In this document: one piece after another, positions 1,504-23,867 of the stretch
Layout of the letters: every line of letters starts with the position of its first letter
How positions within the stretch are numbered: the stretch's first letter is position 1
NCBI GenBank assembly: GCA_965212165.1
Contig: OZ243096.1
Span: 2,850,048 to 2,874,047 of the forward strand
Direction: 5' to 3'
DNA from: Balneolaceae bacterium
Lineage (GTDB): Bacteria > Bacteroidota > Rhodothermia > Balneolales > Balneolaceae
Length of the DNA: 24,000 nt
The notes under the pieces: generated by a model
Told to the model about the DNA's origin: nothing
What the model saw: the letters and a program-made list of their open reading frames with translations, nothing else
Database searches by the model: none
Program-made: the position numbers and the translations under genes

Positions 1504-2334
1504 ATGAAGAAGATTATTGCACTTACTTTTTTCTCTTTTCTAATTTTCATAGATTCTTTTGCTCAAGTAACTATAGCGCCAACAAACCTCTTTATAGACA
1601 GTAATTCTAGGTTTGGTACTTACATGGTTGTCAATGGATCTAATCAAGTTCAAGAAATATCAATTGATTTTTTCTTCGCATATAGTTCTACTGATGAATT
1701 TGGAAATAGAACCATCATTAGTGAGGATTCAGTAAAAGCTGTTCAATATTCCGTTGCTGAATCCATAAGAGCTTTTCCTCAAAATTTTTCACTTAGTCCT
1801 AATCAAAGACAGGTTGTTAGAATTAGAGTAAATATGCCAAATGATGTTCCTGATGGAACTTACTGGTCTCGTATAAGAACTGCATCTACACTACAAAGCC
1901 CTCCTATTGAATTGCAGAATTCTGATGCTGTATCAGCTAGTGTTGGTGTTAAAGTTGAACAAGTAACAGGTTTATTCTACAAAAAAGGAACTGTCTCTAC
2001 GGGTATTGAGATTGTAGATATAAATACAAATTTTGAAGAACCAGATAACATATTGGTTGTTCAAACACAGCATTTAAGAACTGGAAATTCTCCTTTTTTA
2101 GGGTCCATTTCTACATCGATTCTTAACAGTTCAGGAGAAGAAGTTCGAAGAGGGTTTGTATCTACAACGATTTATTTTGATGGAATTCATAAACAAGAAT
2201 TTGAAGTAGAAAATTTACCTTCAGGCACATATACTGCAAAAGTAACTTTTGAAACGAGTAGAAGTGATGTGTCAAATAACGATATTATTAAGGCCCCCAC
2301 TGTAACTAAATCTACAACTTTTACCATTAGGTGA
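1504..2334 (+). CDS. Periplasmic PapD-like pilus chaperone candidate (two-domain Ig-like protein)
   Basis: Signal peptide MKKIIALTFFSFLIFIDSFAQ. The mature N-terminus VTIAPTNLFIDSNSRFGTYMVVNGSNQVQEISIDFFF resembles the PapD_N pattern (v.l..tRvif......sl.v.N....p.l.q.w). A later SPNQRQVVRIRV resembles the P..re.l....v strand. The position between subunit genes and the large OM protein fits. The equivalent of the PapD Arg8 anchor appears to be Asn, so the protein is divergent. Confidence 0.5.
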   Translation: MKKIIALTFFSFLIFIDSFAQVTIAPTNLFIDSNSRFGTYMVVNGSNQVQEISIDFFFAYSSTDEFGNRTIISEDSVKAVQYSVAESIRAFPQNFSLSPNQRQVVRIRVNMPNDVPDGTYWSRIRTASTLQSPPIELQNSDAVSASVGVKVEQVTGLFYKKGTVSTGIEIVDINTNFEEPDNILVVQTQHLRTGNSPFLGSISTSILNSSGEEVRRGFVSTTIYFDGIHKQEFEVENLPSGTYTAKVTFETSRSDVSNNDIIKAPTVTKSTTFTIR

Positions 2335-5300
2335 TCTCCAAGTCTTTAAAGATATCCAATACATTAATCTCAATATTTTTCAGCCTCCTATTCTTATGTA
2401 CCCCTATATTTGCACAGAATAATGAAAATGATGAATTTGAGGTTTTCCTTTCTTTTCGTCATAGGGGAGTAATTGACAATCTTGTAGTCTCTTATTATAA
2501 AAGTGATGAATTTTTTCTACCACTTAATGAACTTTTCAATGTCTTTGAAATAGAGATTAATTCAAACGGTTTACAAACAAATGGTAATTTTTCTGCCAAT
2601 CAAATACCTTATTCTATTGATTTAGAAAAACAAATTATTCAATTTGGAAACGAAACATTCACACTCACTAAGGAAGATTTCTTAGTTAAAGAACTAGATA
2701 GCTATCTAAGAATTTCTCGTTTTAGTGAAGTTTTTGATCTTAATTTTGATGTTGACTTTAACAGCCTATCTCTTAGTCTACAAACAGATGTAGAACTACC
2801 TGCTGTAGCAAGAACTCTTCGAAATAGAACTAGAAGGATTACCGATAGATCAATAGATGAGGCGTTTCACCCTCTGCTTCAAAATTCATCGAAAAATTTT
2901 ATTGATCTAGGTTTCCTAGATTATAGTCTATCATCAAATATTAGGACGGATCAAACTAGCTATAATTACAATTCATCAATAGGAATGAAGATTGCAGGTG
3001 GTGATCTTCAAGGCTCATTTTTTGGAACATATACTAACCAATTTTCAACCTTTTCCACTAATAGATTTAGGTGGCAATTTATTAATAGGAATAGCAAACT
3101 ATTAAGTAGAGTAATTATTGGGCAAACATCAATGGATGGAGTTTTACCAAACTCTTATACAGGTATAAGAATTACAAATGAACCTATTGAAGCTAGACAA
3201 GTATTTGATGAATTTGAAATTGAAGGATCGACTTTTCCGGAGTCAGAAATTGAGCTTTATGTTAATAATTCATTAGTCGATTTCAGCACAGCTGATGATA
3301 TTGGGAACTACCGATTTCTAACCCCAATAAGCTATGGTTCATCACAACTCAGTCTTAAGATTTTTGGGCCAACTGGACAAGTTTTGGAGCAAAGAAAAAG
3401 AATTCAAGTCCCTTTTACATTTATTCCAGAAGGAGAGCTTAACTATGTAATAAATGCTGGTAGACTTGATAATCCAATTATAGGTTCAACAGTACGTAAT
3501 AATGTAATTCAAGCCAATACAGGTTATGGAATAACCAATTGGCTTACTACTAAAGTTGGAGTAGAGTATTATGAAAATTTAAATACTACAAATTCTACCA
3601 TTTTTACTTCATTGGTTTCAGCGAGATTTCTATATAACTATATTTTAAACCTGCAGGCAGTTTCTAATTCATTCTATCGCGCTTCAATTAATGCTGTTTA
3701 CCCAAATGCAGCAAGTGTTAATCTTGGTTATACCGATTATATCTCAAAAGCTTCATTACTTAATACTGCTGGAAATGATAAACAAATTAATGCAAGTTTA
3801 TTTTATCCATTAAAATTTTTAAAGATACCACTTAACTTTAGAGTTAGTAGTTTTTCACGTTATAGAGATAATAATGTATCAACAACTTTTAGAACAGATT
3901 TAAGTGTAAGACTTCAGAAATTCAATTTCAGATTTGGATATAGTGATAGACTTTTTGATTCTTATAACCCATTTAACTCAACAGATGCATCTGCTATTAT
4001 ATCTTCTGCTACATACAATGTGTCTAGAAATCCTACTATTCCTAGCATCTTAAGGGGAGCTTTTTTTAGAACTCAAATGAGATATTTTCCTAGTCGAAAT
4101 AGTATAGATTCATTTGAGTTTTTATACTCACGTAGCCTGTTAGGAAATGGAAGATTACAACTTGTTGCTGGTCGAAATTTTACAACTGGGCTAAATAATA
4201 TCCGTTTCAACCTTATTTTTGACTTTAAAAAAGTTAGAACTAATTCTACATTTATTAGAAATAATAACTCATTTAGCTCAACACAAAACATTAGAGGCTC
4301 TATTGGTTACGATTCAAATTATAGGAACTTTATTTTGACAAGCCGTGATCAAGTTGGAAGATCTGGAACTGCTATCAAGTTATTTGTAGATAATAATAAT
4401 AATAATGCTTTTGATGAAGGCGATGATTCAATAGATGATGGTGGTTTTAGAATAGGACGTTCAGGTTCTTCCTCCATAAAGAAAAATGGAATTATCTATT
4501 ATACACAAATGCAGCCATATTTTAGATATAATATGGATATGAATAAAGGGTCAATTCAAAACCCAATGCTCGTACCAAATCTTGATAAGTTCTCTATTGT
4601 TACTGAACCCAATAGTTTTAAACAAATAGAAATTCCATTTTACATGTCCGGAGTAATCGATGGGAATATCCAAAGAATTTTTTCTACTGGAAAGCAAGAA
4701 GGAATTGGAGGGTTAAAAGTAACTTTAAAATCAACAGACAATGATTTTATAAAAGAACTCAGAACTTTTTCAGATGGTAGTTTTTATGAATATGAAGTTC
4801 CTCCTGGTGATTATGAACTATTTGTCGATCAGAACCAATTAGACTTATTAGGTGTTAAATCAAATCCTGTTAAATTAAATTTCACAGTTAATGCTATACC
4901 TGAAGGTGATTTCGTAGAGGGCTTATCATTAATACTACTACCAACTGAGGAAACTGAAGAATCTGAATTAGATTCATTAATTATTCAACCTCTAACACTT
5001 TCTGAAGTTGGAATTGAAATACGTAATAGCCCGGAAATACTAGTTCTAGAACAAAAACTTAATGAAGATGTGAGCAGAGCACTTAGAATGTTGATCTTGG
5101 CTCAAAATGCATTCTATGCTCAAGATATTGAGGGTGCTTTGGATAATATTAATCGTTCATTAGAATTCTTTAAGACTGCTCAAGGATATGCTTTAAAGGG
5201 AAGTATACTGTATTTTAAGGGTGATAGAGTTGAGGCTGTAAATAGCTGGAGAATGGCATTACGCTACGATCCCGACATTTACATTCCAACCTTAGAAGAA

Positions 5301-5336
5301 TTGGATCAAAGAGTTACTATTAGTTCTTCAGACTAA
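2331..5336 (+). CDS. Large outer-membrane usher-like protein with two C-terminal beta-sandwich-like domains and a terminal TPR-like module
   Basis: GTG start overlaps the chaperone stop (GTGA at 2331-2334). Signal peptide MISKSLKISNTLISIFFSLLFLCTPIFAQ. About 650 aa are Asn/Ser/Tyr/Phe/Arg-rich with alternating patterns typical of a beta-barrel. An SdrD-B/prealbumin-like segment follows (FVDNNNNNAFDEGDDSIDDGGFRIG, about 4365-4500). A CarboxypepD_reg-like segment follows that (GVIDGNIQRIF...GLKVTLKS...TFSDGSFYEYEVPPGDYELFV, about 4650-4905). Then comes an acidic linker (PTEETEESELD) and a TPR-like end (5061-5333). The usher call rests on gene order and architecture, not on a recognised usher motif. 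Confidence 0.5.
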   Translation: MISKSLKISNTLISIFFSLLFLCTPIFAQNNENDEFEVFLSFRHRGVIDNLVVSYYKSDEFFLPLNELFNVFEIEINSNGLQTNGNFSANQIPYSIDLEKQIIQFGNETFTLTKEDFLVKELDSYLRISRFSEVFDLNFDVDFNSLSLSLQTDVELPAVARTLRNRTRRITDRSIDEAFHPLLQNSSKNFIDLGFLDYSLSSNIRTDQTSYNYNSSIGMKIAGGDLQGSFFGTYTNQFSTFSTNRFRWQFINRNSKLLSRVIIGQTSMDGVLPNSYTGIRITNEPIEARQVFDEFEIEGSTFPESEIELYVNNSLVDFSTADDIGNYRFLTPISYGSSQLSLKIFGPTGQVLEQRKRIQVPFTFIPEGELNYVINAGRLDNPIIGSTVRNNVIQANTGYGITNWLTTKVGVEYYENLNTTNSTIFTSLVSARFLYNYILNLQAVSNSFYRASINAVYPNAASVNLGYTDYISKASLLNTAGNDKQINASLFYPLKFLKIPLNFRVSSFSRYRDNNVSTTFRTDLSVRLQKFNFRFGYSDRLFDSYNPFNSTDASAIISSATYNVSRNPTIPSILRGAFFRTQMRYFPSRNSIDSFEFLYSRSLLGNGRLQLVAGRNFTTGLNNIRFNLIFDFKKVRTNSTFIRNNNSFSSTQNIRGSIGYDSNYRNFILTSRDQVGRSGTAIKLFVDNNNNNAFDEGDDSIDDGGFRIGRSGSSSIKKNGIIYYTQMQPYFRYNMDMNKGSIQNPMLVPNLDKFSIVTEPNSFKQIEIPFYMSGVIDGNIQRIFSTGKQEGIGGLKVTLKSTDNDFIKELRTFSDGSFYEYEVPPGDYELFVDQNQLDLLGVKSNPVKLNFTVNAIPEGDFVEGLSLILLPTEETEESELDSLIIQPLTLSEVGIEIRNSPEILVLEQKLNEDVSRALRMLILAQNAFYAQDIEGALDNINRSLEFFKTAQGYALKGSILYFKGDRVEAVNSWRMALRYDPDIYIPTLEELDQRVTISSSD
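4392..4406 (+). repeat. (AAT)5 trinucleotide repeat encoding Asn5 inside the usher-like gene
   Basis: Read directly: gat aat aat aat aat aat gct. It is in frame, so slippage would change the Asn count rather than the reading frame. Confidence 0.9.
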
Positions 5337-5405
5337 TTCTTTTTTCATCTTAATAACAAATTAAATACATCTACAGCACTTAGATTGGTAATAGCTGATA
5401 CTTTT

Positions 5406-7178
5406 ATGAAGCATATCTTTCATAGTATTATTGTTCTCCTCTTTATGTCTGCGAATTTATTTTCACAGTCTAACGCTTCAAATGCATCTAATTCTCAATC
5501 CTTAGAGCTTAAAATCTCTTCTCTTGAGCAAAGCTATGACTCTCAAGTTTATCTGCTTTTATCAAATTATTTTGATCGTAAAAAGTTTTTTGTTGATGTA
5601 AACATAAATGCTGAGTTTGTAGATGAAACCGTAGAGTCTACTCAAAACCAAGTTATTCAGAATAGACCTGATAACTTGATGATGCCGGGCCTCCCTTTTC
5701 TACCTCAAGAAAATATTAGAGCAAATACAGGTGCCCAATCTCCTCAAACAGTGGTAAATCAAAGTACCATTAGAACCCTGAGGCTTGTAAATATTAATAT
5801 TAGTATTTACGCCGATACTTCTTTTTCGGTACAAGAAATTCAATTTATGAGCTTATTAACTGGAATTGCTGCTAAGACCAATGACGCACGTGGTGATGAG
5901 GTAACAATAGCTCAAATTCCTATCCCTACTGTTGGTACTGTTGACCCTATTCCAATTATTCAAGCTCCCTCAGAGCCTGTAAGTATTCTCGCCTCTTTTA
6001 GATCTTATATACCAGGTTTTGTACTTTTAATGCTTTTTGGTGCGATCATGTTCTTATCAAGGATTTTTAACAAACCAGAAGATCAGGTGTCCTCTTTACA
6101 GCAAAGAGAAAGTATTAAACATGATATTTCGATAAGTGATTTTGGGCGCCCAATGGAACAAGTTCTTGTCAATAGTTCCGATGCTGGAAGAGATATCTCT
6201 ATAGAGATTGACGAATTGATCAATAGCTTCTTCAATAAATCACAAGAAATTGCTCTTTTATTTGAGTATTGGTTAGATGAAAACAAAGAAGAAGGTGCTT
6301 TTAAAGCTGCTGAAATAATCGCTTGTGTAGACAAACAATTATTGAGAGCCATTAAAAATGATCTCCAACCTGAGAACTTAGAATTAATTACTACAGCCTT
6401 AGAAGACCTTGCACCAATGATGTCGGAAAGAAAGAGTTCCGTAATAAGAAGCTTTAATTCTATTCTTAGAACTGGAAATAAAACCAGTCTTACTTCCAAG
6501 AAAAATGGCCATATAAATTTATTCAAATTTCTTGACCATATTTCAGATGCTCAGATCGTAGATTTATTAAATGATGAGGGTTATCAAACAGGGGCTTTAA
6601 TAGTAGATTATTTACCTGATGAAAAAGCAGCTCGTGTGTTAGATAGAATTGATAAAGTACGCAGTGCTAATATTATGTTTAAGATGACTACCATCAGTAG
6701 TATTCCTTATCAATTACAAAGTGAGATTTCTTCAAAGCTTTTTGATAAAGCGATGGACTTAAAAGACAAAGAGAAAGAACAACAATTAGGTGCTGAAAAT
6801 ATTCTTCCACTTCTTGATAAACTACCTCTAAGTGAACAACAAGCTTATATAGATCAATTAAAAGCTACCAATTCCGTTGTTGGTGAAGTTGTTCAACGAC
6901 AGTTTATTACCATTAATCAAGTGTTAACTTTAACAGATGATATTATAAAAGAGGCTATCCAAGATATTGATACTTCTACCCTCTTAGATGCTTTACTTGG
7001 CTTAGATCAAAAACTAGTTGATAAATTCCTTTCCGTACGTCCAAAAAGAGAGCAACGTCTTATTCGTTTAGAACTTGATGAATTAAAAGACAAGCCACAA
7101 AAAGATACGAATGAAGCGAAATCTGAAATTATGAAAAGAATTAGATTGACTGTTAAGAAAAGTCATTCTGCAACATAA
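5406..7178 (+). CDS. Membrane protein combining a FliF/YscJ-like periplasmic ring motif, a TM helix and a complete FliG-like (N/M/C) cytoplasmic region
   Basis: The ORF track gives 5385..7178 from a TTG; the ATG at 5406 yields MKHIFHSIIVLLFMSANLFSQ (signal or anchor). The periplasmic part ends IRTLRLVNINISIYADTSFSVQEIQFMSLLTGIAAKTNDARGDEVTIAQIP, like the FliF pre-TM2 motif (...RGD.v.V). TM helix IPGFVLLMLFGAIMFLSRIF lies at 6009-6068. LLNDEGYQTGALIVDYLPDEKAARVL resembles the FliG_M pattern EHPQTiAliLsyL.p..AA.vL. ALLGLDQKLVDKFLSVRPKREQRLIRLELDELKDKPQKDTNEAKSEIMKRIR resembles the FliG_C pattern ALKGasdELkeKifkNMSkRAa.ll.deLe.mGPVrlkDVEEAQ..I...iR. Confidence 0.75.
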   Translation: MKHIFHSIIVLLFMSANLFSQSNASNASNSQSLELKISSLEQSYDSQVYLLLSNYFDRKKFFVDVNINAEFVDETVESTQNQVIQNRPDNLMMPGLPFLPQENIRANTGAQSPQTVVNQSTIRTLRLVNINISIYADTSFSVQEIQFMSLLTGIAAKTNDARGDEVTIAQIPIPTVGTVDPIPIIQAPSEPVSILASFRSYIPGFVLLMLFGAIMFLSRIFNKPEDQVSSLQQRESIKHDISISDFGRPMEQVLVNSSDAGRDISIEIDELINSFFNKSQEIALLFEYWLDENKEEGAFKAAEIIACVDKQLLRAIKNDLQPENLELITTALEDLAPMMSERKSSVIRSFNSILRTGNKTSLTSKKNGHINLFKFLDHISDAQIVDLLNDEGYQTGALIVDYLPDEKAARVLDRIDKVRSANIMFKMTTISSIPYQLQSEISSKLFDKAMDLKDKEKEQQLGAENILPLLDKLPLSEQQAYIDQLKATNSVVGEVVQRQFITINQVLTLTDDIIKEAIQDIDTSTLLDALLGLDQKLVDKFLSVRPKREQRLIRLELDELKDKPQKDTNEAKSEIMKRIRLTVKKSHSAT

Positions 7179-7185
7179 CTTTAAG

Positions 7186-7710
7186 ATCGACCACAAAAGT
7201 TACATATTACTCCTTCTGCCGATTCTATTCATTTTTATAAGCTGTAGAGGATCGAATCAACTTTCACAATCAAACTCACAAGAACAAATTGCTTCTAACG
7301 AAGATGTAGCCAATTCTACAGAAGTTCCTGTTCAAACACGTGAAGATAGCGCTTTGGCTAGAAGAAATGCGTTAGTCGAAGTTTATAAAGATGAACTGAA
7401 CGAAATTTATAGAGCAGATGCTAATGGTATCATCTCCTATTATATACTAGCTCAACAACGCTTTTATAATGGAGATTATCAGAATGCACTTATTTACGCA
7501 AATAGGGCCGCAAATATCAAAGAAAATGCTGATATATTAGCTTTAAAAGGTAGTATTTACTTAGGATTAGGATTGAATGAAAACTTTGTTGCAAATTGGA
7601 GACAAGCTCTAGAGTTAGACCCTGACGTTCCTCTCCCAATTTCACCATATATTATTCAACAATTACAATTGAACGGATTAATTGATGCAAACCTAAAAAA
7701 AGCTTTTTAG
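7186..7710 (+). CDS. Lipoprotein with a TPR-like module paralogous to the C-terminus of the usher-like protein
   Basis: The ORF track gives 7354..7710 from a TTG, and that is the conservative call. The frame is open from 7150 and encodes a textbook lipoprotein signal (..KIDHKSYILLLLPILFIFISC|RGSNQ) followed by a low-complexity linker. There is no ATG, GTG or TTG before 7354. The start is tentatively placed at the ATC at 7186. The stop TAG at 7708-7710 is firm. The TPR-like part (7423-7653) is YILAQQRFYNGDYQNALIYANRA...ALKGSIYLGLG...ANWRQALELDPDVPLP. Confidence 0.55.
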   Translation: MDHKSYILLLLPILFIFISCRGSNQLSQSNSQEQIASNEDVANSTEVPVQTREDSALARRNALVEVYKDELNEIYRADANGIISYYILAQQRFYNGDYQNALIYANRAANIKENADILALKGSIYLGLGLNENFVANWRQALELDPDVPLPISPYIIQQLQLNGLIDANLKKAF

Positions 7711-7722
7711 GTAAGATTACTG

Positions 7723-8520
7723 ATGAAAACATCCATACTAAACATATTAAGCTTTCTAGTTTCTATTGTAATCCTTATATGGGGATCAGTGCTTGTGATG
7801 GGGTTTGCCGAATATAATCTAATCCCTCCTATTTATGACTTTTTGAATATCCCTAGTTTAGCTATTGTATTTGGCGGCATTTCAGCTAGTGTATTTATTA
7901 GCTATCCATTTAAACAAGTTGTAACTGCTTTAAGAGCGAGTATGCGTCTTTTTTCTCATAGTACCATCACCGATGAAGTACTTGAACGTGATATTGATTT
8001 AATTTTGGAGTGGCAAAAAAAAATTAATACCAATAAGATTCAAGCCGTGGCAACTCTTAGTCAGCAGTATGAAGATAAATTTGAGGGTTATCTATTTTCC
8101 GTACTTGATACCAATTATAGTAACGAAGAGCTTCGTGAGTTAGGAGAAATAAACATAACTGAGAATTACACTCGTCAACAACAAATTACTCAAATCATAT
8201 CAAGTATGGGTAAAACATCTCCTGTTTTTGGTATGCTTGGAACTCTATTTGGCTTAATTGTTATTCTCTCCGGTTTTAGTGAAGTAGAGTCTTTGTTAAC
8301 AGGATTAGGGGCTGCTTTAATGACCACTCTTTACGGTATTTTAATTGGGAACTTCGTTTTTACCCCAATGGCAAAAAAAATGGAAAGTACGGCTGCTTTA
8401 CAATATTTTAGAGAGAAACTTATTCTTGAAGGTATAATCCTAATTGAAGAACATAAAACTTCTCTACAGATATATGACCGCCTTCAAGCACATATGAGAA
8501 GAAATAAGTATACGATGTAG
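7723..8520 (+). CDS. MotA/PomA-like proton-channel stator subunit (4 TM helices)
   Basis: N-terminal pair of TM helices, including the MotA-like PSLAIVFGGISASVFISYP. A cytoplasmic loop of about 100 aa follows. Then comes the MotA/TolQ/ExbB signature SPVFGMLGTLFGLIVILSGF ... LGAALMTTLYGILIGNFVFTPMAKKME. The 12-nt gap to the upstream gene suggests co-transcription. Confidence 0.85.
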   Translation: MKTSILNILSFLVSIVILIWGSVLVMGFAEYNLIPPIYDFLNIPSLAIVFGGISASVFISYPFKQVVTALRASMRLFSHSTITDEVLERDIDLILEWQKKINTNKIQAVATLSQQYEDKFEGYLFSVLDTNYSNEELRELGEINITENYTRQQQITQIISSMGKTSPVFGMLGTLFGLIVILSGFSEVESLLTGLGAALMTTLYGILIGNFVFTPMAKKMESTAALQYFREKLILEGIILIEEHKTSLQIYDRLQAHMRRNKYTM

Positions 8521-8542
8521 ATCATTACTAGATACTTAAGAT

Positions 8543-10279
8543 TTGAAAGAAAACCGTATAAATAACTCCTATTCACTCTATCCAAAAGCCGCTGTTGAGG
8601 ATTTAGATGATGATAGTTGGCAAGTTAGCTACCTTGATATTATTACTATTATACTTGGCTTTCTTATAATACTTCTCTCCATTTCTCAAATTGCAAAACC
8701 TGAATTTTCCTCTCTTTCTACCGTATTTGGCAATTCTTCTGATAAAACTGAATTCATTACAACTCCTATTGAGGAAATTCAAGAGGAACTTGAATCTCTT
8801 TTACGAACGCAGATTGATGAAGGTAGATTAATTGTTTATAGAGATTTAAATGATATCCGAATCCGTTTAAAAGGCGATGATTTTTATAGTTCTGGTAGTG
8901 CCGATTTACAGGGTGAAGGATTAGATTTATTGAATCATGTGATACGAGCTTTTCAACAGACAGAGTACTCAGATTTTAATATCGAAGTTGAAGGACATAC
9001 AGATAATGTTCCTATTAGAACGGCCGGGTTTTCATCTAATTGGGAACTATCTACAGCAAGAGCATCAAACGTCGTCAAATATTTCGACCGCATGGGCCTA
9101 GAGCAAGAACGACTCAAAGCTTCAGGTTATGCAGATTCTAGACCCTTAGTTCAACTTGATTCATTCGGTAATCCTTTCGCTGCATCAAAAGAACAAAACA
9201 GAAGAATAGTTTTAAGATTGTACTACACTTCTGAAGGCCTAGAGAAAAGGGCAATTCAGCAAGCCCTTGCAGATAATCAAGAAGAGCTTATAAACGCCGA
9301 TGTTACTACTCCTGAACCTGACTCACAAACAGACCTAATTGCACAAGAATTACTTGCAATAAGTGCTTCTAACAATAATGAGAAGATTCCAGCTATTCCT
9401 GAAACAGTGGAAGAAGCTCCTACTCCTGTATTACAAGATGATCCAATTGAAGAAGTTGATCCAGTTCCAACTTCTGTTCCAGAACCTTTAAATTCAAATG
9501 AATTACCTAATATACCTTCCTTCCTAGATGGAAATATATCATGCAGTTTCATTATTCAAGTTGGTAGCTTCCAATCACTATCTTCTGGCTTTCAAGTTGC
9601 TAATAATGCAAAAATCCAAACAGGTTTAGATTTTGAGGTTGCTTCAAATGGCCGACTCTATTCAGTTCGATCAAACCCAACATCATCATTTTCTGAAGCT
9701 TTAACTTATCATAATGAAGTTAAAACGAAACTAAATGATTCAAATGTTGGGCTCATACATCAATGCTATGAAGGTGAACAAGAAATACCGTCAACACTAC
9801 AGTATCAAATTCAATTTGGAGCCTTCCAAAGTCAAGAAAATGCACTCAGCTATACAATTAGATTAGATAAGGAGTATCAGATTCAAACATATATGAATCG
9901 TCGATCCGAGACTTATAACATTGTAGCAGGTCCTTATGAAAGTAGAGAACGTGTATTGAGTCAACTTAGATCGTTTAAAGAAAAAGGTGTAAATGAAAAT
10001 ATCTTTATAAAACCGATTACTGAAAGTACATCCGACTATAAATATGCTTATCAATTACAACTGGATTCATTTAACTCAATTAATGAAGCACAAATTGTTT
10101 CAACACGAATAGCTGAAACATTAGGGATAGTTTCAACAGTTGCTAGATCTACTGATGGAACCTATCTTCTCTTAACAGATAGAACTTCTAATTGGGATGA
10201 AACCATTTCAAATTACGAACGATTTAAGTCTAGAGTACCTAGTTCAACTCCTGTCATCTATTTTCTAGAGTATATATAA
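8543..10279 (+). CDS. MotB-like stator subunit with an OmpA-type peptidoglycan-binding domain, a Pro/Glu linker and three C-terminal SPOR-like repeats
   Basis: TTG start. The TM segment SWQVSYLDIITIILGFLIILLS carries the conserved channel Asp (GAT at 8636-8638). OmpA_C motifs are present (VEGHTDNVPI...SNWELSTARASNVV...GYADSRP...NRRIVLRL, about 8825-9223). The linker TTPEPD...EAPTPVLQDDPIEEVDPVPTSVPEP follows. Three SPOR-like units lie at about 9542-10267 (FIIQVGSFQS...LYSVRSNP; YQIQFGAFQSQENA...YNIVAGPYESRE; YAYQLQLDSFNSINEA...YLLLTD). Confidence 0.85.
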   Translation: MKENRINNSYSLYPKAAVEDLDDDSWQVSYLDIITIILGFLIILLSISQIAKPEFSSLSTVFGNSSDKTEFITTPIEEIQEELESLLRTQIDEGRLIVYRDLNDIRIRLKGDDFYSSGSADLQGEGLDLLNHVIRAFQQTEYSDFNIEVEGHTDNVPIRTAGFSSNWELSTARASNVVKYFDRMGLEQERLKASGYADSRPLVQLDSFGNPFAASKEQNRRIVLRLYYTSEGLEKRAIQQALADNQEELINADVTTPEPDSQTDLIAQELLAISASNNNEKIPAIPETVEEAPTPVLQDDPIEEVDPVPTSVPEPLNSNELPNIPSFLDGNISCSFIIQVGSFQSLSSGFQVANNAKIQTGLDFEVASNGRLYSVRSNPTSSFSEALTYHNEVKTKLNDSNVGLIHQCYEGEQEIPSTLQYQIQFGAFQSQENALSYTIRLDKEYQIQTYMNRRSETYNIVAGPYESRERVLSQLRSFKEKGVNENIFIKPITESTSDYKYAYQLQLDSFNSINEAQIVSTRIAETLGIVSTVARSTDGTYLLLTDRTSNWDETISNYERFKSRVPSSTPVIYFLEYI

Positions 10280-10311
10280 AAAAAGCTTCCTGATATTCTC
10301 AAGAAGCTTTT
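10278..10311. terminator. Hairpin terminator shared by the convergent MotB-like and pdhC genes (stronger for the minus strand)
   Basis: AAAAGCTTCCTGA (10281-10293), loop TATTC, TCAAGAAGCTTTT (10299-10311), with one internal mismatch. On the minus strand the hairpin runs into a T7 tract (A run at 10278-10284 on the plus strand). On the plus strand only TTTT follows. Confidence 0.6.
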
Positions 10312-10331
10312 CATAAAATGTAGAAATTTCT

Positions 10332-19971: not shown

Positions 19972-20748
19972 TTATTGATTGCTTATTCTGTATCTAACCA
20001 ATTCATCAATCGATGGTCTTTCTCTTCTTTCTTCAATCAAAGTTTCTGCAAGTCCATCCGTTACTTCTACACTTCTAAGTCTCATTAAGTTTTCTTTAGA
20101 AAGTTCTTCCAAAGTATAACCAAGATCCATCATTCTACTAGTAAAGTTTGCTGTCACTCCATTTCTTCGAGTTTCTGCAACTTCATCTGCAGTAAATGTA
20201 TACCCTAGTTCTTTCATCATTCTTGCATAAGTGGGACTTGCGTCTGCATTTTCTAATGCAATTAATTGTTCTACAGTAATATCTGAATATCCAATATCTT
20301 GAAATTGAGCGATTTCTGGGGCTCTAACTCCTGCTCTACTCAGTTCTCTCACTTCTTCTAGAGTAAGTGCGCTTAAACCAATGTCATGTAATCTTTGAGT
20401 TTCCGTTGCAGTCACACCATCATCGCGTAAGCTCGATAATTCTTCAACAGAAAGTGTTCCATATCCAAGTTCTTGCATCCACTCACCCATCCCTGCAATC
20501 AATTCTGGATCATACTCATTAAATGAATCAACCATTTCCGATATTGGGTTTTCGAAATCAGCAAAAAAGGTGCTCACTCTATTCCCAGCATAAAATAAAA
20601 GTGTAGCTAAAAAAGCAATTACCAAGATATAATTCGCTGTTTTGGAGCCGCCTGAAGTTGATTTAGATGTTACTCCTAGACCTGAATCTTCTGTCTCATT
20701 TTCAAGGTCTTTTAAGTCGTTTTTAAGATTTCTGAATTTAGTACTCAT
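19972..20748 (-). CDS. Membrane-anchored protein with five degenerate tandem repeats of about 30 aa; function unknown
   Basis: The ATG at 20748 (MSTKFRNLKND) is preferred to the TTG at 20769. One TM helix (YILVIAFLATLLFYAG). The repeat has the form x-[ED]-[LI]-G-[YL]-x(2-3)-[LIF]-[ST]-x-[ED]-[EQ]-[LV]-x(3-4)-R-x-x-G-V-[TR]-A and spans about 20035-20487. Confidence 0.6.
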   Translation of the reverse strand: MSTKFRNLKNDLKDLENETEDSGLGVTSKSTSGGSKTANYILVIAFLATLLFYAGNRVSTFFADFENPISEMVDSFNEYDPELIAGMGEWMQELGYGTLSVEELSSLRDDGVTATETQRLHDIGLSALTLEEVRELSRAGVRAPEIAQFQDIGYSDITVEQLIALENADASPTYARMMKELGYTFTADEVAETRRNGVTANFTSRMMDLGYTLEELSKENLMRLRSVEVTDGLAETLIEERRERPSIDELVRYRISNQ

Positions 20749-20817
20749 ATATAGCCCATAGATTTGCAAAACCGATACGTATTAATGAGTAGAAAGATGC
20801 ACAAATTGAAGCTAATT

Positions 20818-21192
20818 TTAAACTAAGTTTATTGAATTAGTAAGTTCAGCCATTGTAAATGGTTTTGTTATTAGATCAATAAACTCAGTAGCTTTTGCTC
20901 TTTCGTAATTTAGTTTATCAGAATTCCCCGTTATGTATATAACAGAAGTAGAAATATTCTTCTTGATAGCTGTTACTGCCTGAATCCCGTCCATTTCTCC
21001 TTTTAGCCTAACATCCATTAAGATTAGATCGGGTTTATGTGCCTCAGCTATTTCAATTGCTTCTTCACCAGATGTAGCTTTTCCTATAACTTCATGACCT
21101 AGTTTTAAAATCATACTTTCAATTACTAGTGAGATAATCATATCATCTTCACCAATCAATACTCGTTTTTTATCTTTTAATAATTCACTCAA
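20818..21192 (-). CDS. Response regulator, receiver domain only (CheY-like)
   Basis: KRVLIGEDD (acidic pocket), PDLILMDVRL (phospho-acceptor Asp), VIYITGN and KPF. There is no output domain. The start is a TTG. Confidence 0.85.
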   Translation of the reverse strand: MSELLKDKKRVLIGEDDMIISLVIESMILKLGHEVIGKATSGEEAIEIAEAHKPDLILMDVRLKGEMDGIQAVTAIKKNISTSVIYITGNSDKLNYERAKATEFIDLITKPFTMAELTNSINLV

Positions 21193-21304: not shown

Positions 21305-22162
21305 CTATAAATCTATATCTTCATTTATTGGTACAACTGAAAGCAGTAATCCATCAATTACATCAATATTTGCAAACCACCCTTCAAAAGAATCATTGGT
21401 ATATGAAATTGGAACTTTCCAAGTTTTTCTTAATTCTAGTGTCTGATCGTTAATAAAAGGTAAATATTCAAAAATTGGAGTTTTCTGTAAATGCATATCC
21501 GTTACTTCAAAAACAATATTTTCACCTGTGAAAGGGAGCATATCAATCTGCCAACCGATCATAATTTTTTGAGCTTCCAAATAACCTACATTGATAAGTC
21601 CTGGACTCTTAAAATCGGGATACCAGTTGCCCCAAATCCGATTAACCCCAACTGAGTCGATGAACACAGTAAGCTCTGTATCTCTAACTTCAGAATTCCC
21701 AATTTTTTGTATACCAAATGAAATTTTATACTCTAATGGAACACTATTCTCTTCAGGCCCTTCGCAAATAATACATCCGTATAAAGGAACAATATCTGTT
21801 ACTTCTAAAGCGCTAGTATCAGTTACATTTGTATAGATTTTATTTTTTAAGAGAGAACTTTTAGATTTTGTGATTAGAGAATCAGAATAAAAAATTTCCT
21901 TCCGAACAATCTCTCTACTTAAACAAGGGTTTTCATCATTTGGAAATAGAACTCGGCTAAAACCTGTGTATCCATATTCATTTAATGTGGAACAAATGTG
22001 ACCATCATTCTCAAGCTTATATGTTTCATTTAGCGCAACTAATTCTTCCAGTTCTAGTGGTTCAATTTTAACAGGATAGTTGGTAAAATCGGCTACTTCT
22101 AGCACGTCGCAAGAAGCTGCAACGTATGATATGAGAATAAAAGCGAAAATATATAGCTTCAA
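21305..22162 (-). CDS. Hypothetical lipoprotein
   Basis: TTG start. Signal with lipobox MKLYIFAFILISYVAASC|D. I recognise no family motif. Confidence 0.55.
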   Translation of the reverse strand: MKLYIFAFILISYVAASCDVLEVADFTNYPVKIEPLELEELVALNETYKLENDGHICSTLNEYGYTGFSRVLFPNDENPCLSREIVRKEIFYSDSLITKSKSSLLKNKIYTNVTDTSALEVTDIVPLYGCIICEGPEENSVPLEYKISFGIQKIGNSEVRDTELTVFIDSVGVNRIWGNWYPDFKSPGLINVGYLEAQKIMIGWQIDMLPFTGENIVFEVTDMHLQKTPIFEYLPFINDQTLELRKTWKVPISYTNDSFEGWFANIDVIDGLLLSVVPINEDIDL

Positions 22163-22308: not shown

Positions 22309-23469
22309 TTGAGTAGCAAGAATAAGAAGATTTCAATTATAGGTGCAGGTGCTTCAGGTATTTCTTGTGCATTGATTTTAACGAAATTTGGGTACGATGT
22401 TACCATTTATACCAAGGATAAACCCTTTAGTAAATCAGTCTCCTCATTATTTGTAAGTCGGTATCCTGCTGCATCTATTATACCACATTCTGTTACGCAC
22501 CCTAATGTTAAAACTCTATTCAAGAGTAGTTTTTCCTATTTTAAGAAACTCTTTAATTCAGATTTTCCTGGTTTAAAAGTTCATAAGCATTATGAACTAT
22601 TCTCCAACAGAAAAGAAATACCATTCTATCATGATCAAATGTATAAGTTCCATCTAATAGAACGGTTTGATCAAATTGGAATACCAAAACACCCTGAAAT
22701 AACTCTTTTATCTGGTTGGGAATTTGAATGTTTTTTCGCTGATTGGAACATATATTTTCAAGCACTTATTAATGAATTTGAACAATTAGGTGGGGTTATC
22801 ATAGAGAAAGAAATTGATCATAAAGAAATTACTTCAATTGAATCTGATATTGTAATTAACTGTGCTGAAATAAATGGTCCAAAAATTGCCGGTGAAAATT
22901 TTAATCCAGTTTTATATAGAGGACACTTAATTCATATAAAAGACGCTCCTTATATTACCGATAATAATGGAATGCCCATTTCTTATAATTTAACTCCCCC
23001 TTTAAATTTGTATAAGTCAGAAAATGGAAATCCTCAAGACTTGTATTTATATCCAAGACAAGATGGATGGATATTAGGCGGAAGTAGACAAATAGGAACT
23101 TTATCAAATGATGGAAAATGGATCGGTGAAGAAGTGATTGAACGATCTCAAGATTTGAATGGTACTTCATTTCCAAAACAGATTCTTGCATTACAACAAC
23201 CAATTATCAAAGAAACTTTTGGATTTGATTTAGATTCGTTCCCTAAAATAACTCTTAACGTCGGTTATCGTTTTATGGGAAATAATAATGAAGGGTTAAG
23301 ATTAGAATCAGAAGAGAAGTTTGGCAAACTTTTAATTCATAATTATGGCCATGGTGGTTCTGGTGTTGCTCTTAGCTGGGGATGTGCTTTGGAAGTAGCT
23401 TCTTTAGTTAATAAGAAGACAATTAGTAGAGGTTTGGAACTAGAAAACGTTAGTTCATTCTTCAATTAA
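22309..23469 (+). CDS. FAD-dependent oxidoreductase of the D-amino-acid oxidase (DAO) family
   Basis: N-terminal Rossmann motif KISIIGAGASGISCAL. C-terminal HNYGHGGSGVALSWGCA, characteristic of DAAO-type enzymes. The start is a TTG. Confidence 0.8.
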   Translation: MSSKNKKISIIGAGASGISCALILTKFGYDVTIYTKDKPFSKSVSSLFVSRYPAASIIPHSVTHPNVKTLFKSSFSYFKKLFNSDFPGLKVHKHYELFSNRKEIPFYHDQMYKFHLIERFDQIGIPKHPEITLLSGWEFECFFADWNIYFQALINEFEQLGGVIIEKEIDHKEITSIESDIVINCAEINGPKIAGENFNPVLYRGHLIHIKDAPYITDNNGMPISYNLTPPLNLYKSENGNPQDLYLYPRQDGWILGGSRQIGTLSNDGKWIGEEVIERSQDLNGTSFPKQILALQQPIIKETFGFDLDSFPKITLNVGYRFMGNNNEGLRLESEEKFGKLLIHNYGHGGSGVALSWGCALEVASLVNKKTISRGLELENVSSFFN

Positions 23470-23867
23470 GAAGACGCTGTTTTTTTAAATTTGTAATTTA
23501 GCCAATGACCTCTGATCAGCATTAAACTACCAATTAATGTGATGCCTGCTTCACCATATTCACCAAGATTTTCATTAAAAAACCAGGCTAAAAAAATTAC
23601 TAATACTCCACCTACTAAGAAAAAAGTAATCATCCTTGAATCATGTCTTTTTCTTAATGAAAGTATAACTGTAGGCGCAATTGCTAGGAAGAAAAATAGA
23701 TGTGTATATCCATGGAGTTCTTCAAAAGCCGGCCAAAGAGGTATCAGAGAAACTATTACAGGTACTAGTAAACAATGAATAGCACAAATACCTGATAGTG
23801 CAATACCCACTCTATCCCAAAAACCGGGCTTGTTAATTTCTTGATCGTTTAGTTTCAGCTTATCCAT
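23466..23867 (-). CDS. MerC-domain-like small membrane protein
   Basis: 133 aa with about 4 TM helices. N-terminal DRVGIALSGICAIHCLLVPVI (a Cys-x-x-His-Cys segment). C-terminal GSLMLIRGHWLNYK, as I recall for MerC-domain proteins of Bacteroidota. The assignment is from memory only. Confidence 0.45.
   Translation of the reverse strand: MDKLKLNDQEINKPGFWDRVGIALSGICAIHCLLVPVIVSLIPLWPAFEELHGYTHLFFFLAIAPTVILSLRKRHDSRMITFFLVGGVLVIFLAWFFNENLGEYGEAGITLIGSLMLIRGHWLNYKFKKTASS

Follow-up and report, generated by a model that had tools for sequence, protein, structure and literature searches.

A flagellar-type stator and a FliF-FliG fusion protein encoded within a chaperone-usher gene array of Balneolaceae: a putative non-flagellar motor linked to an outer-membrane usher

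Background

FliG and flagellar-type MotAB are commonly treated as diagnostic of flagella, and the question raised by the locus described here is what such proteins might be doing where they are encoded side by side with no other flagellar part. The locus lies in the genome of a marine Balneolaceae bacterium (NCBI GenBank assembly GCA_965212165.1, contig OZ243096.1, positions 2,850,048 to 2,874,047 of the forward strand); this whole stretch of 24,000 nucleotides, which has a GC content of 34.5%, is referred to below as the window, and positions are counted from its first letter. A preliminary description of the stretch, made from its letters without database searches, had pointed to a MotA/MotB-type stator pair beside a FliG-like protein; the FliF-like ring domain, the TPR lipoprotein, the usher, the SPOR tail and the paralogous cassette considered in the present work were absent from it.

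The window contains a single co-directional array which encodes, in order, DUF4402 subunits, a protein at the position of a chaperone, an usher with a TPR tail, a FliF(RBM3/collar)-transmembrane-FliG fusion protein, a TPR lipoprotein, MotA and MotB. It is highly probable that the fusion protein and the stator pair make up a rotor-stator module which is not flagellar. The reading preferred here, to which a rough probability of 55% is attached, goes further and holds that this module would be a rotary motor which energises the outer-membrane usher via TPR connectors.

The stator genes

The motor genes and the usher gene which precedes them are the following.

2331-5336, + strand: outer-membrane usher, 1001 amino acids, with a C-terminal periplasmic TPR tail
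5385-7178, + strand: FliF-FliG fusion rotor protein, 597 amino acids, identified by Pfam, PDB, hhalign, AlphaFold2 (AF2) and Foldseek
7183-7710, + strand: TPR lipoprotein with the lipobox LFIFISC, between the rotor and MotA genes
7723-8520, + strand: MotA/PomA-type stator A subunit, 265 amino acids, four transmembrane (TM) helices, start codon ATG
8543-10279, + strand: MotB-type stator B subunit, 578 amino acids, start codon TTG

The A subunit matches Pfam MotA_ExbB at 4.6e-17, and its full-length NCBIfam matches to MotP, MotA and PomA (3.8e-33 to 8.4e-26, with MotP at 3.8e-33) can be set against values of 0.003 for ExbB and 0.026 for TolQ. Among PDB chains, the MotA structures of Clostridium sporogenes and Bacillus are matched at 1e-23 over residues 4-244 and PomA is matched at 2e-16, while TolQ reaches just 0.39 and ExbB, GldL and ZorA are absent from the matches. 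Hydropathy gives four hydrophobic segments (about 8-26, 41-61, 168-186 and 191-213), the second and third of them separated by a loop of about 105 residues, and when the profile of the family is aligned using hhalign, it follows E. coli MotA over 181 columns that begin at TM2, take in the loop and end at TM4 (95%, 2.5e-8), but follows ExbB and TolQ over only 54-56 columns, which cover the last two (channel) helices alone. The residues P167 and P215, which are invariant in the family, correspond to the prolines P173 and P222 in TM3 and TM4 of E. coli MotA; in the loop, where the alignment is unreliable, R90 of E. coli MotA, which like E98 is a charged residue in contact with FliG, corresponds to K105, a position that is Lys or Arg across the family. 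Orthologues of the A subunit are 63-92% identical across Balneolaceae, and their length is almost always 265 amino acids.

The B subunit has a MotB_plug match at residues 23-63 (Pfam, 1.6e-6), one TM helix at residues 33-51 by hydropathy, and an OmpA domain at about 115-225 (Pfam match at 115-203, 2e-13), and it matches the MotB and PomB chains of the PDB at 8e-19 to 1e-13. The Asp of its YLDIITI motif is residue 32, at the cytoplasmic end of the TM helix, and the GAT codon for it occupies exactly positions 8636-8638. An acidic and Pro-rich linker is followed by about three SPOR repeats (residues ~334-578), so that a SPOR tail which the preliminary description did not mention makes up the C-terminal half of the protein. 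Orthologues of the B subunit in Balneolaceae are 40-73% identical.

What the preliminary description had said of the pair itself is thus borne out: the four-TM MotA/PomA topology by the four hydrophobic segments together with the end-to-end alignment to solved MotA, the long cytoplasmic TM2-TM3 loop by its hydropathy, the difference from the ExbB/TolQ layout by the weak ExbB and TolQ scores and the short alignments, and, for the MotB-like protein, the single TM helix with its essential Asp codon and the OmpA-type peptidoglycan anchor by the positions and matches just given. In the profile, PDB and hhalign comparisons the A subunit does not appear to group with three-TM TolQ and ExbB.

Three other identities were considered for the A subunit. 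TolQ or ExbB is ruled out by the four-TM topology, the NCBIfam and PDB scores, and the restriction of the alignment to the channel helices, and GldL is ruled out by the lack of a PDB match. ZorA, as part of an anti-phage Zorya system, was rejected as well, with a PADLOC ZorA value of 0.065 and only generic ZorB/MotB similarity.

The rotor protein and the TPR lipoprotein

The adjacent gene, described earlier as FliG-like, does encode a complete set of FliG domains, and it encodes more than these. The order of its product is a signal peptide, a periplasmic RBM3/beta-collar-like domain (~36-177), a TM helix (209-228) and the N, M and C domains of FliG (~271-596). Pfam finds FliG_N, FliG_M and FliG_C in order within residues 304-588, a PDB search matches Thermotoga maritima FliG at 4e-18, the family aligns with E. 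coli FliG at 92% in hhalign, and the cytoplasmic part matches full-length FliG (3hjl) at 9e-10 in Foldseek. In the AF2 model, in which the domains have pLDDT values of 70-85, the periplasmic part runs helix, long strand, disordered loop, long strand, helix, strand; Foldseek matches this domain to the RBM3/beta-collar of the FliF S-ring in more than 15 entries (7e-5 to 9e-4, probability 1.0), with TM-scores of 0.5-0.59 when normalised to the target, and matches it more weakly to SpoIIIAG. The modelled periplasmic part is only about 150 residues long and lacks RBM1 and RBM2, the domains which in flagella surround the export gate.

The membership of the family was established with an exhaustive HMMER search of 1.84 billion representatives, for which the N-terminal 302 residues of the rotor protein were the query. 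This search returned 86 clusters, nearly all of them 590-810 amino acids long, and those that were scanned carry FliG domains; canonical FliF was not among the matches, and one distant member of the family has a weak Pfam YscJ_FliF_C match (0.0029). Conservation in the family is highest in the torque helix, RPKREQRLIRLEL, within which R555 and E563, both invariant, correspond to R281 and D289 of E. coli FliG. The EHPQ motif by which FliG binds FliM is degenerate (E398-x-x-Q401), and neither FliM nor FliN was found in any locus examined. Orthologues in Balneolaceae are 40-85% identical. Because a periplasmic domain of a ring-forming type, a membrane anchor and FliG are joined in one chain, the modelled product looks like a self-contained rotor subunit.

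The TPR gene which follows is easily misread. The mechanically called open reading frame (ORF) begins at 7354, but the frame itself is open as far back as 7183, and the 171 nt before the first ATG, GTG or TTG (7183-7353) encode a lipoprotein signal peptide, YILLLLPILFIFISC. Judged from the sequence, the true start is probably a non-canonical codon (ATC, ATA or CTG), and automatic annotation would therefore shorten the protein and lose the lipobox. The orthologues, which range from 157 to 226 amino acids, all have a lipobox. In two distant lineages (loci L056 and L057) rotor and TPR protein form a single polypeptide, the TPR part being joined to the C-terminal end of the rotor part via its own signal/TM segment.

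The usher and its linkage to the motor cassette

The usher is too divergent to be placed securely using sequence profiles: Pfam Usher matches 2 of 18 members of the family (best value 7e-4), and the hhalign comparison with FimD is not significant (0.079). The AF2 model (pLDDT 79) matches FimD (3rfz_B) in Foldseek over about 900 columns (5e-29) and also PapC (8e-25), and the match covers the N-terminal domain, the barrel and plug, and the C-terminal domains, as in ushers with a 24-strand barrel. On this predicted structure the product is a true usher of the FimD/PapC fold, and the fold match is decisive. A TPR tail occupies residues ~890-995 (nt ~4998-5315), and it is homologous to the TPR protein of the cassette itself.

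Within Balneolaceae, to which belong all of the 40 species-level genomes with the rotor protein that were recovered by the scan, each complete locus keeps the entire cluster, intact and collinear. The pyruvate dehydrogenase (PDH) flank is syntenic in this family as well, so collinearity there is by itself no proof of linkage between the usher and the motor. More informative are the divergent members L055, L056 and L057, which have unrelated flanks and a GC content of 45-55%. In these loci the order is the chaperone-position gene, an usher of 966-983 amino acids, the rotor protein, the TPR protein (where it is not fused to the rotor), MotA and a short MotB, and the ushers are about 32% identical to the usher of the window, TPR tail included.

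The linkage was surveyed through the usher tail. Metagenomes scanned for matches to the usher alignment yielded 67 loci, which were pooled with the earlier loci; about 50 were informative, loci without a motor being counted only if at least 4 kb downstream of the usher was available. Wherever the alignment reached the TPR tail, the rotor-TPR-MotA-MotB cassette followed (26/26 loci), and where the usher ended at ~870-937, with no TPR tail, the cassette was present in 0/24 loci, a group that takes in usher-SPOR fusions and Marinimicrobia. A pair of Gracilimonas loci shows the same contrast at a single site. In G. tropica the cassette sits between the usher body and the SPOR tail, and a second Gracilimonas that shares the sigma-54/EPSP-synthase flank has no cassette, its usher running straight into the SPOR tail; the loci compared are L053 4545-12328 (usher-TPR, rotor, TPR, MotA, MotB-SPOR) and L051 10001-13516 (an usher-SPOR fusion of 1171 amino acids). 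By comparison of these sequences, the motor cassette appears to behave as an in-frame indel between usher body and SPOR tail, and hence as a discrete optional module whose presence is marked on the usher itself.

A second, paralogous type of cassette occurs in Balneolaceae and related metagenome-assembled genomes (MAGs), in three different contexts with no usher adjoining (L044 6392-11531, L046 6277-11524 and L048 6476-11500). It encodes a rotor protein of the same architecture (22% identity over the full length), a protein of 355-387 amino acids, a TPR lipoprotein, a MotA of a second group (36-44% identity) and a short MotB. The protein of 355-387 amino acids has a signal peptide, a C-terminal Phe and no Pfam match, and may be an outer-membrane partner resembling a beta-barrel protein. 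One MAG, F3-SA18-16, holds cassettes of both types. Common to the two types, as a conserved core, are the rotor, the TPR lipoprotein and MotAB, with an outer-membrane protein as the partner of this core; the SPOR repeats are missing from L055-L057 and from the type-2 cassettes, and are therefore not a core feature.

Flagellar or not

Since the window holds no other flagellar part, the torque generator appears to be reused for a job in the envelope outside a flagellum. Both the position of the stator pair outside any flagellar gene context and its use for something other than a flagellum had been proposed in the preliminary description, and both proposals hold up: no further flagellar genes were found in the 24 kb of the window, nor any in the flanks examined, the cassette is linked to an usher, and the full type-1 cluster is carried by Gracilimonas tropica, which is described as non-motile and has just 17 genes in COG-N (cell motility) (PMC4642740). 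According to a KEGG survey, Balneola, Fodinibius salinus, Rhodohalobacter and G. tropica are without flagellar-assembly genes, while Aliifodinibius retains many flagellar genes in an incomplete set (PMC9909488). In the proteome of Balneola vulgaris there were no chemotaxis proteins and one "flagellar assembly" protein, and its authors conclude that the strain is non-motile (PMC9027524).

The alternative which this evidence addresses is that the pair is the ordinary stator, and its neighbour the ordinary FliG, of a canonical flagellum encoded elsewhere in the genome. Annotation pipelines do label these genes FliG and MotA, Aliifodinibius belongs to the same family, and B. vulgaris was once listed as flagellated. 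The alternative is nevertheless very unlikely, because the partner of the stator is a FliG fused to a secreted RBM3-like domain, without RBM1 or RBM2 and with a degenerate EHPQ motif, because the cassette is tied to an usher in several unrelated genomic contexts and the fusion protein always stands in a cassette with an usher or another outer-membrane protein, because the full cluster is present in non-motile G. tropica, and because Balneola and G. tropica have no genes for flagellar assembly in the KEGG survey. That no flagellum is encoded elsewhere in the source genome is well supported by its relatives and by the literature, and the stator accordingly does not seem to serve a distant flagellum.

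The subunit and chaperone-position genes

The genes upstream of the usher follow the order that is familiar from chaperone-usher systems.

89-667, + strand: DUF4402-like secreted small subunit with a signal peptide, third of four paralogues
831-1352, + strand: DUF4402 subunit, the fourth small gene (Pfam DUF4402 9.7e-6, full profile)
1369-1403, + strand: strong terminator-like hairpin, 15-bp stem and T-run, between the last DUF4402 gene, which it directly follows, and the chaperone-position gene
1504-2334, + strand: periplasmic protein at the chaperone position, 276 amino acids, with a signal peptide; its stop codon overlaps the start of the usher gene

The first two of the four DUF4402-type paralogues sit beyond the left edge of the window, and orthologues of the gene at 89-667 take the third small-gene position in all related loci. 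Pfam DUF4402 matches 24 of the 36 pooled small subunits, and the product of 831-1352 is a candidate for the major fibre subunit. A hairpin directly after the gene for the major subunit is the layout of the fim and pap operons, and the hairpin at 1369-1403 could raise the level of subunit transcripts relative to those of the assembly genes. The chaperone-position gene adjoins the usher gene in every locus, Marinimicrobia included, and its position, its size and its signal peptide all fit a chaperone; it is from the position that the identity is inferred.

Other proteins are encoded upstream of the DUF4402 genes. In motor-bearing and motor-less loci alike, the gene immediately upstream is that of a giant surface protein of 2100-2500 amino acids with DUF2341, Laminin_G_3, Invasin_D3 and Por_Secre_tail domains (L001 1-3512, L050 195-6563, L052 613-7044 and L109 610-7107), and in L057 (217-3423) its place is taken by a smaller Por_Secre_tail protein of 1068 amino acids with Gly_rich_2. 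The presence of a Por_Secre_tail protein upstream suggests a link between the fibre system and the cargo of type IX secretion. In a series of loci the DUF4402 genes are preceded by four conserved genes, for products of ~139, 195, 425-493 (DUF4900) and 129 amino acids (L004 693-3603; also L008, L012, L015, L018, L023, L026, L051 and L053), the first three of which encode N-terminal hydrophobic segments that recall type IV minor pilins.

Proposed mechanism and alternatives

In the coupling model, MotB would tie units of the MotA5B2 type to peptidoglycan with its OmpA and SPOR domains, and these units would pass H+ or Na+ by way of Asp32 and push on the conserved torque helix of FliG. The RBM3-like domain would oligomerise the fusion protein into an inner-membrane ring, which would turn or be cyclically strained. 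From the periplasmic collar of this ring, work would reach the usher by way of the TPR lipoprotein and the TPR tail, and there it might drive or gate a step by which DUF4402 fibres are exported, extended, retracted or moved. The stator and ring steps are drawn from established knowledge of MotAB/FliG and of FliF, and the transmission from collar through TPR segments to usher is drawn from the co-occurrence of these parts and from the fusions between them. A stronger form of the model, in which a free-standing rotary motor, independent of type III export, rotates, extrudes or retracts a chaperone-usher fibre, is tentative and somewhat doubtful.

Several observations weigh against the coupling model or against the assignments on which it is built. 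Classical chaperone-usher pili need no energy at the outer membrane, and what the motor would deliver to the usher is a guess. The usher system is found without a motor in many Gracilimonas and Marinimicrobia and the motor is found without an usher in the type-2 loci, so that any coupling must be facultative. The chaperone-position protein has no similarity to FimC in hhalign or to any PDB chain in a profile search, and the DUF4402 subunits likewise have no PDB match in a profile search, so both roles are those of candidates. The kinship of the rotor protein with FliF is one of fold only, since hhalign found nothing between its N-terminal domain and E. coli FliF. The torque helix keeps two of the five classical charges of FliG (R281 and D289, and not K264, D288 or R297), and on the stator side E98 of E. 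coli MotA is replaced by Ser113, its charge unmatched, although most members have a Glu two residues on and the loop alignment is unreliable here. Two distant rotor proteins (P0375, at L056 5844-8267, and P0416) start with a periplasmic LysM domain, which is expected to bind peptidoglycan and is therefore hard to square with a freely spinning ring. Finally, Hahnke et al. list Balneola vulgaris with flagella, citing the species description (PMC5167729).

An alternative explanation is that the motor and the usher are neighbours that work separately, and that the cassette is a general energiser of the envelope which serves outer-membrane stability or tethering, as Tol-Pal does, or peptidoglycan or division. 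The type-2 cassettes without an usher nearby in three contexts, the usher systems without any motor, and the SPOR and LysM domains, which point to peptidoglycan, all speak for separate work. This explanation has difficulty, however, with the perfect co-occurrence of usher tail and cassette, which extends over four lineages with unrelated flanks, and with the homology between the usher tail and the TPR protein of the cassette, and the SPOR repeats on which it draws are outside the core; it is judged unlikely.

The other alternative of some weight retains the motor and the fibre but assigns them to surface motility, with the ring acting as a pinion that moves fibres or adhesins in the way that GldLM moves SprB, and with a rotating chaperone-usher fibre as the extreme case. 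It gains from the conservation of the giant Por_Secre_tail surface protein (DUF2341/LamG/Invasin_D3) upstream of the small subunits in several lineages, and from the listing of B. vulgaris as motile with "flagella" (PMC5167729), though KEGG finds no flagellar genes in the genus. On the other side, the whole cluster is present in G. tropica, which is described as non-motile, the proteome study of B. vulgaris concluded that the strain is non-motile, the giant adhesin also accompanies ushers that have no motor, and a beta-barrel usher would be a poor bearing for rotation. An engine of surface motility is thus an improbable answer.

That the genes are decaying remnants of a lost flagellum, with no current function, is hardly credible: flagellar loss is common in the superphylum and leftover rotor proteins occur in 11% of non-motile species (preprint 10.1101/2024.12.05.626484), but here more than 60 loci have all their genes intact, MotA is still 63-92% identical in a family where identity of the rotor protein has fallen to 40%, there is no variation in Asp32, in the two prolines or in the torque helix, and two ancient paralogous cassettes have both been kept.

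Relation to known systems and significance

With the core of the flagellar motor, the system shares a four-TM A subunit with a cytoplasmic torque loop, a B subunit with the Asp, plug and OmpA domain, the N, M and C domains of FliG with a conserved torque helix, and the RBM3/beta-collar fold of FliF. It differs from that core in that FliF and FliG are joined in a single chain which has one TM helix and a signal peptide that looks cleavable, without RBM1 and RBM2 and with a degenerate EHPQ motif, in that the locus is without FliM/FliN, export gate, rod, hook and filament, and in that MotB carries SPOR repeats and the genes lie inside a chaperone-usher operon. In the FIT/GIT scheme, a plug with a linker, an OmpA-type domain and a torque-generating loop define FIT (flagellar) stators and non-flagellar homologues, AglRS among them, are placed in GIT (PMC12505986), and the stator pair of the window shows sequence features of the FIT type.

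With chaperone-usher pili of the FimD/PapC kind, the system shares the usher fold, the order of subunits, chaperone and usher, and the hairpin after the last subunit gene; the archaic Csu-type systems have a similar gene order. Here, however, a TPR (or SPOR) tail extends the usher, the subunits are of the DUF4402 type and have no detectable similarity to Fim, Pap or SCPU pilins, the chaperone is not recognisable by sequence, and an ion-driven motor is attached, which to our knowledge is the case in no described chaperone-usher system.

In its logic, the arrangement may be compared with the type IX secretion and gliding machinery of the same superphylum (PorLM/GldLM, the PorKN ring, the TPR lipoprotein PorW/SprE, and Sov), in which an ion-driven motor in the inner membrane, a periplasmic ring, a TPR lipoprotein and an outer-membrane translocon work together. 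This likeness would be one of analogy: there is no kinship of sequence or fold to GldL or GldM, and the system described here has a MotAB/FliG motor and an usher as its translocon. ExbBD-TonB and TolQR-TolA are likewise ion-driven motors of the 5:2 type which energise the outer membrane across the periplasm, but their A subunits have three TM helices and a short loop, and they have no rotor ring. AglRQS, ZorAB and SiiAB are stator-like complexes in non-flagellar uses, and we know of none that has a FliG/FliF rotor.

No description of a motor-usher system was found in the literature, of which the coverage was incomplete, so that an earlier description is possible. A survey preprint asks what "half a motor" in non-motile species is for (10.1101/2024.12.05.626484), and the system would be a concrete answer, namely a minimal rotor and stator with no export gate or C-ring, genetically locked to an usher. 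If confirmed, the system would show that the torque module can stand apart from the other flagellar parts, a point of relevance to scenarios for flagellar origin, would provide the first energy source for chaperone-usher fibres, and would offer a far simpler rotor for structural and single-molecule work; it would also be a caution against reading motility from fliG and motAB annotations in Balneolota and related groups. If the stronger form with a free-standing rotary motor were true, a previously unknown class of motorised surface appendage would have been found, and the flagellar torque module would be able to function alone, so that its evolution or exaptation as an independent unit would be possible.

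Operon limits and neighbouring genes

The run of co-directional genes extends from the left edge of the window to 10279. From 1504 to 10279 the gaps between genes are small or the genes overlap, and no terminator-like sites were found on the + strand in this interval. The end of the operon is marked as follows.

10280-10312, - strand: terminator-like hairpin between the convergent motB-like and PDH E2 genes

On the 3' side of the operon, PDH and alanyl-tRNA synthetase genes lie on the opposite strand. Farther along on the - strand, two ORFs without a Pfam match (19972-20769, 265 amino acids, and 21305-22162, 285 amino acids) have a stand-alone response-regulator gene (20818-21192) between them, and a gene of the MerC family of mercury transport (23466-23867, - strand, 5.6e-20), which is unrelated to the motor, adjoins a gene for a FAD oxidoreductase of the DAO family (22309-23469).

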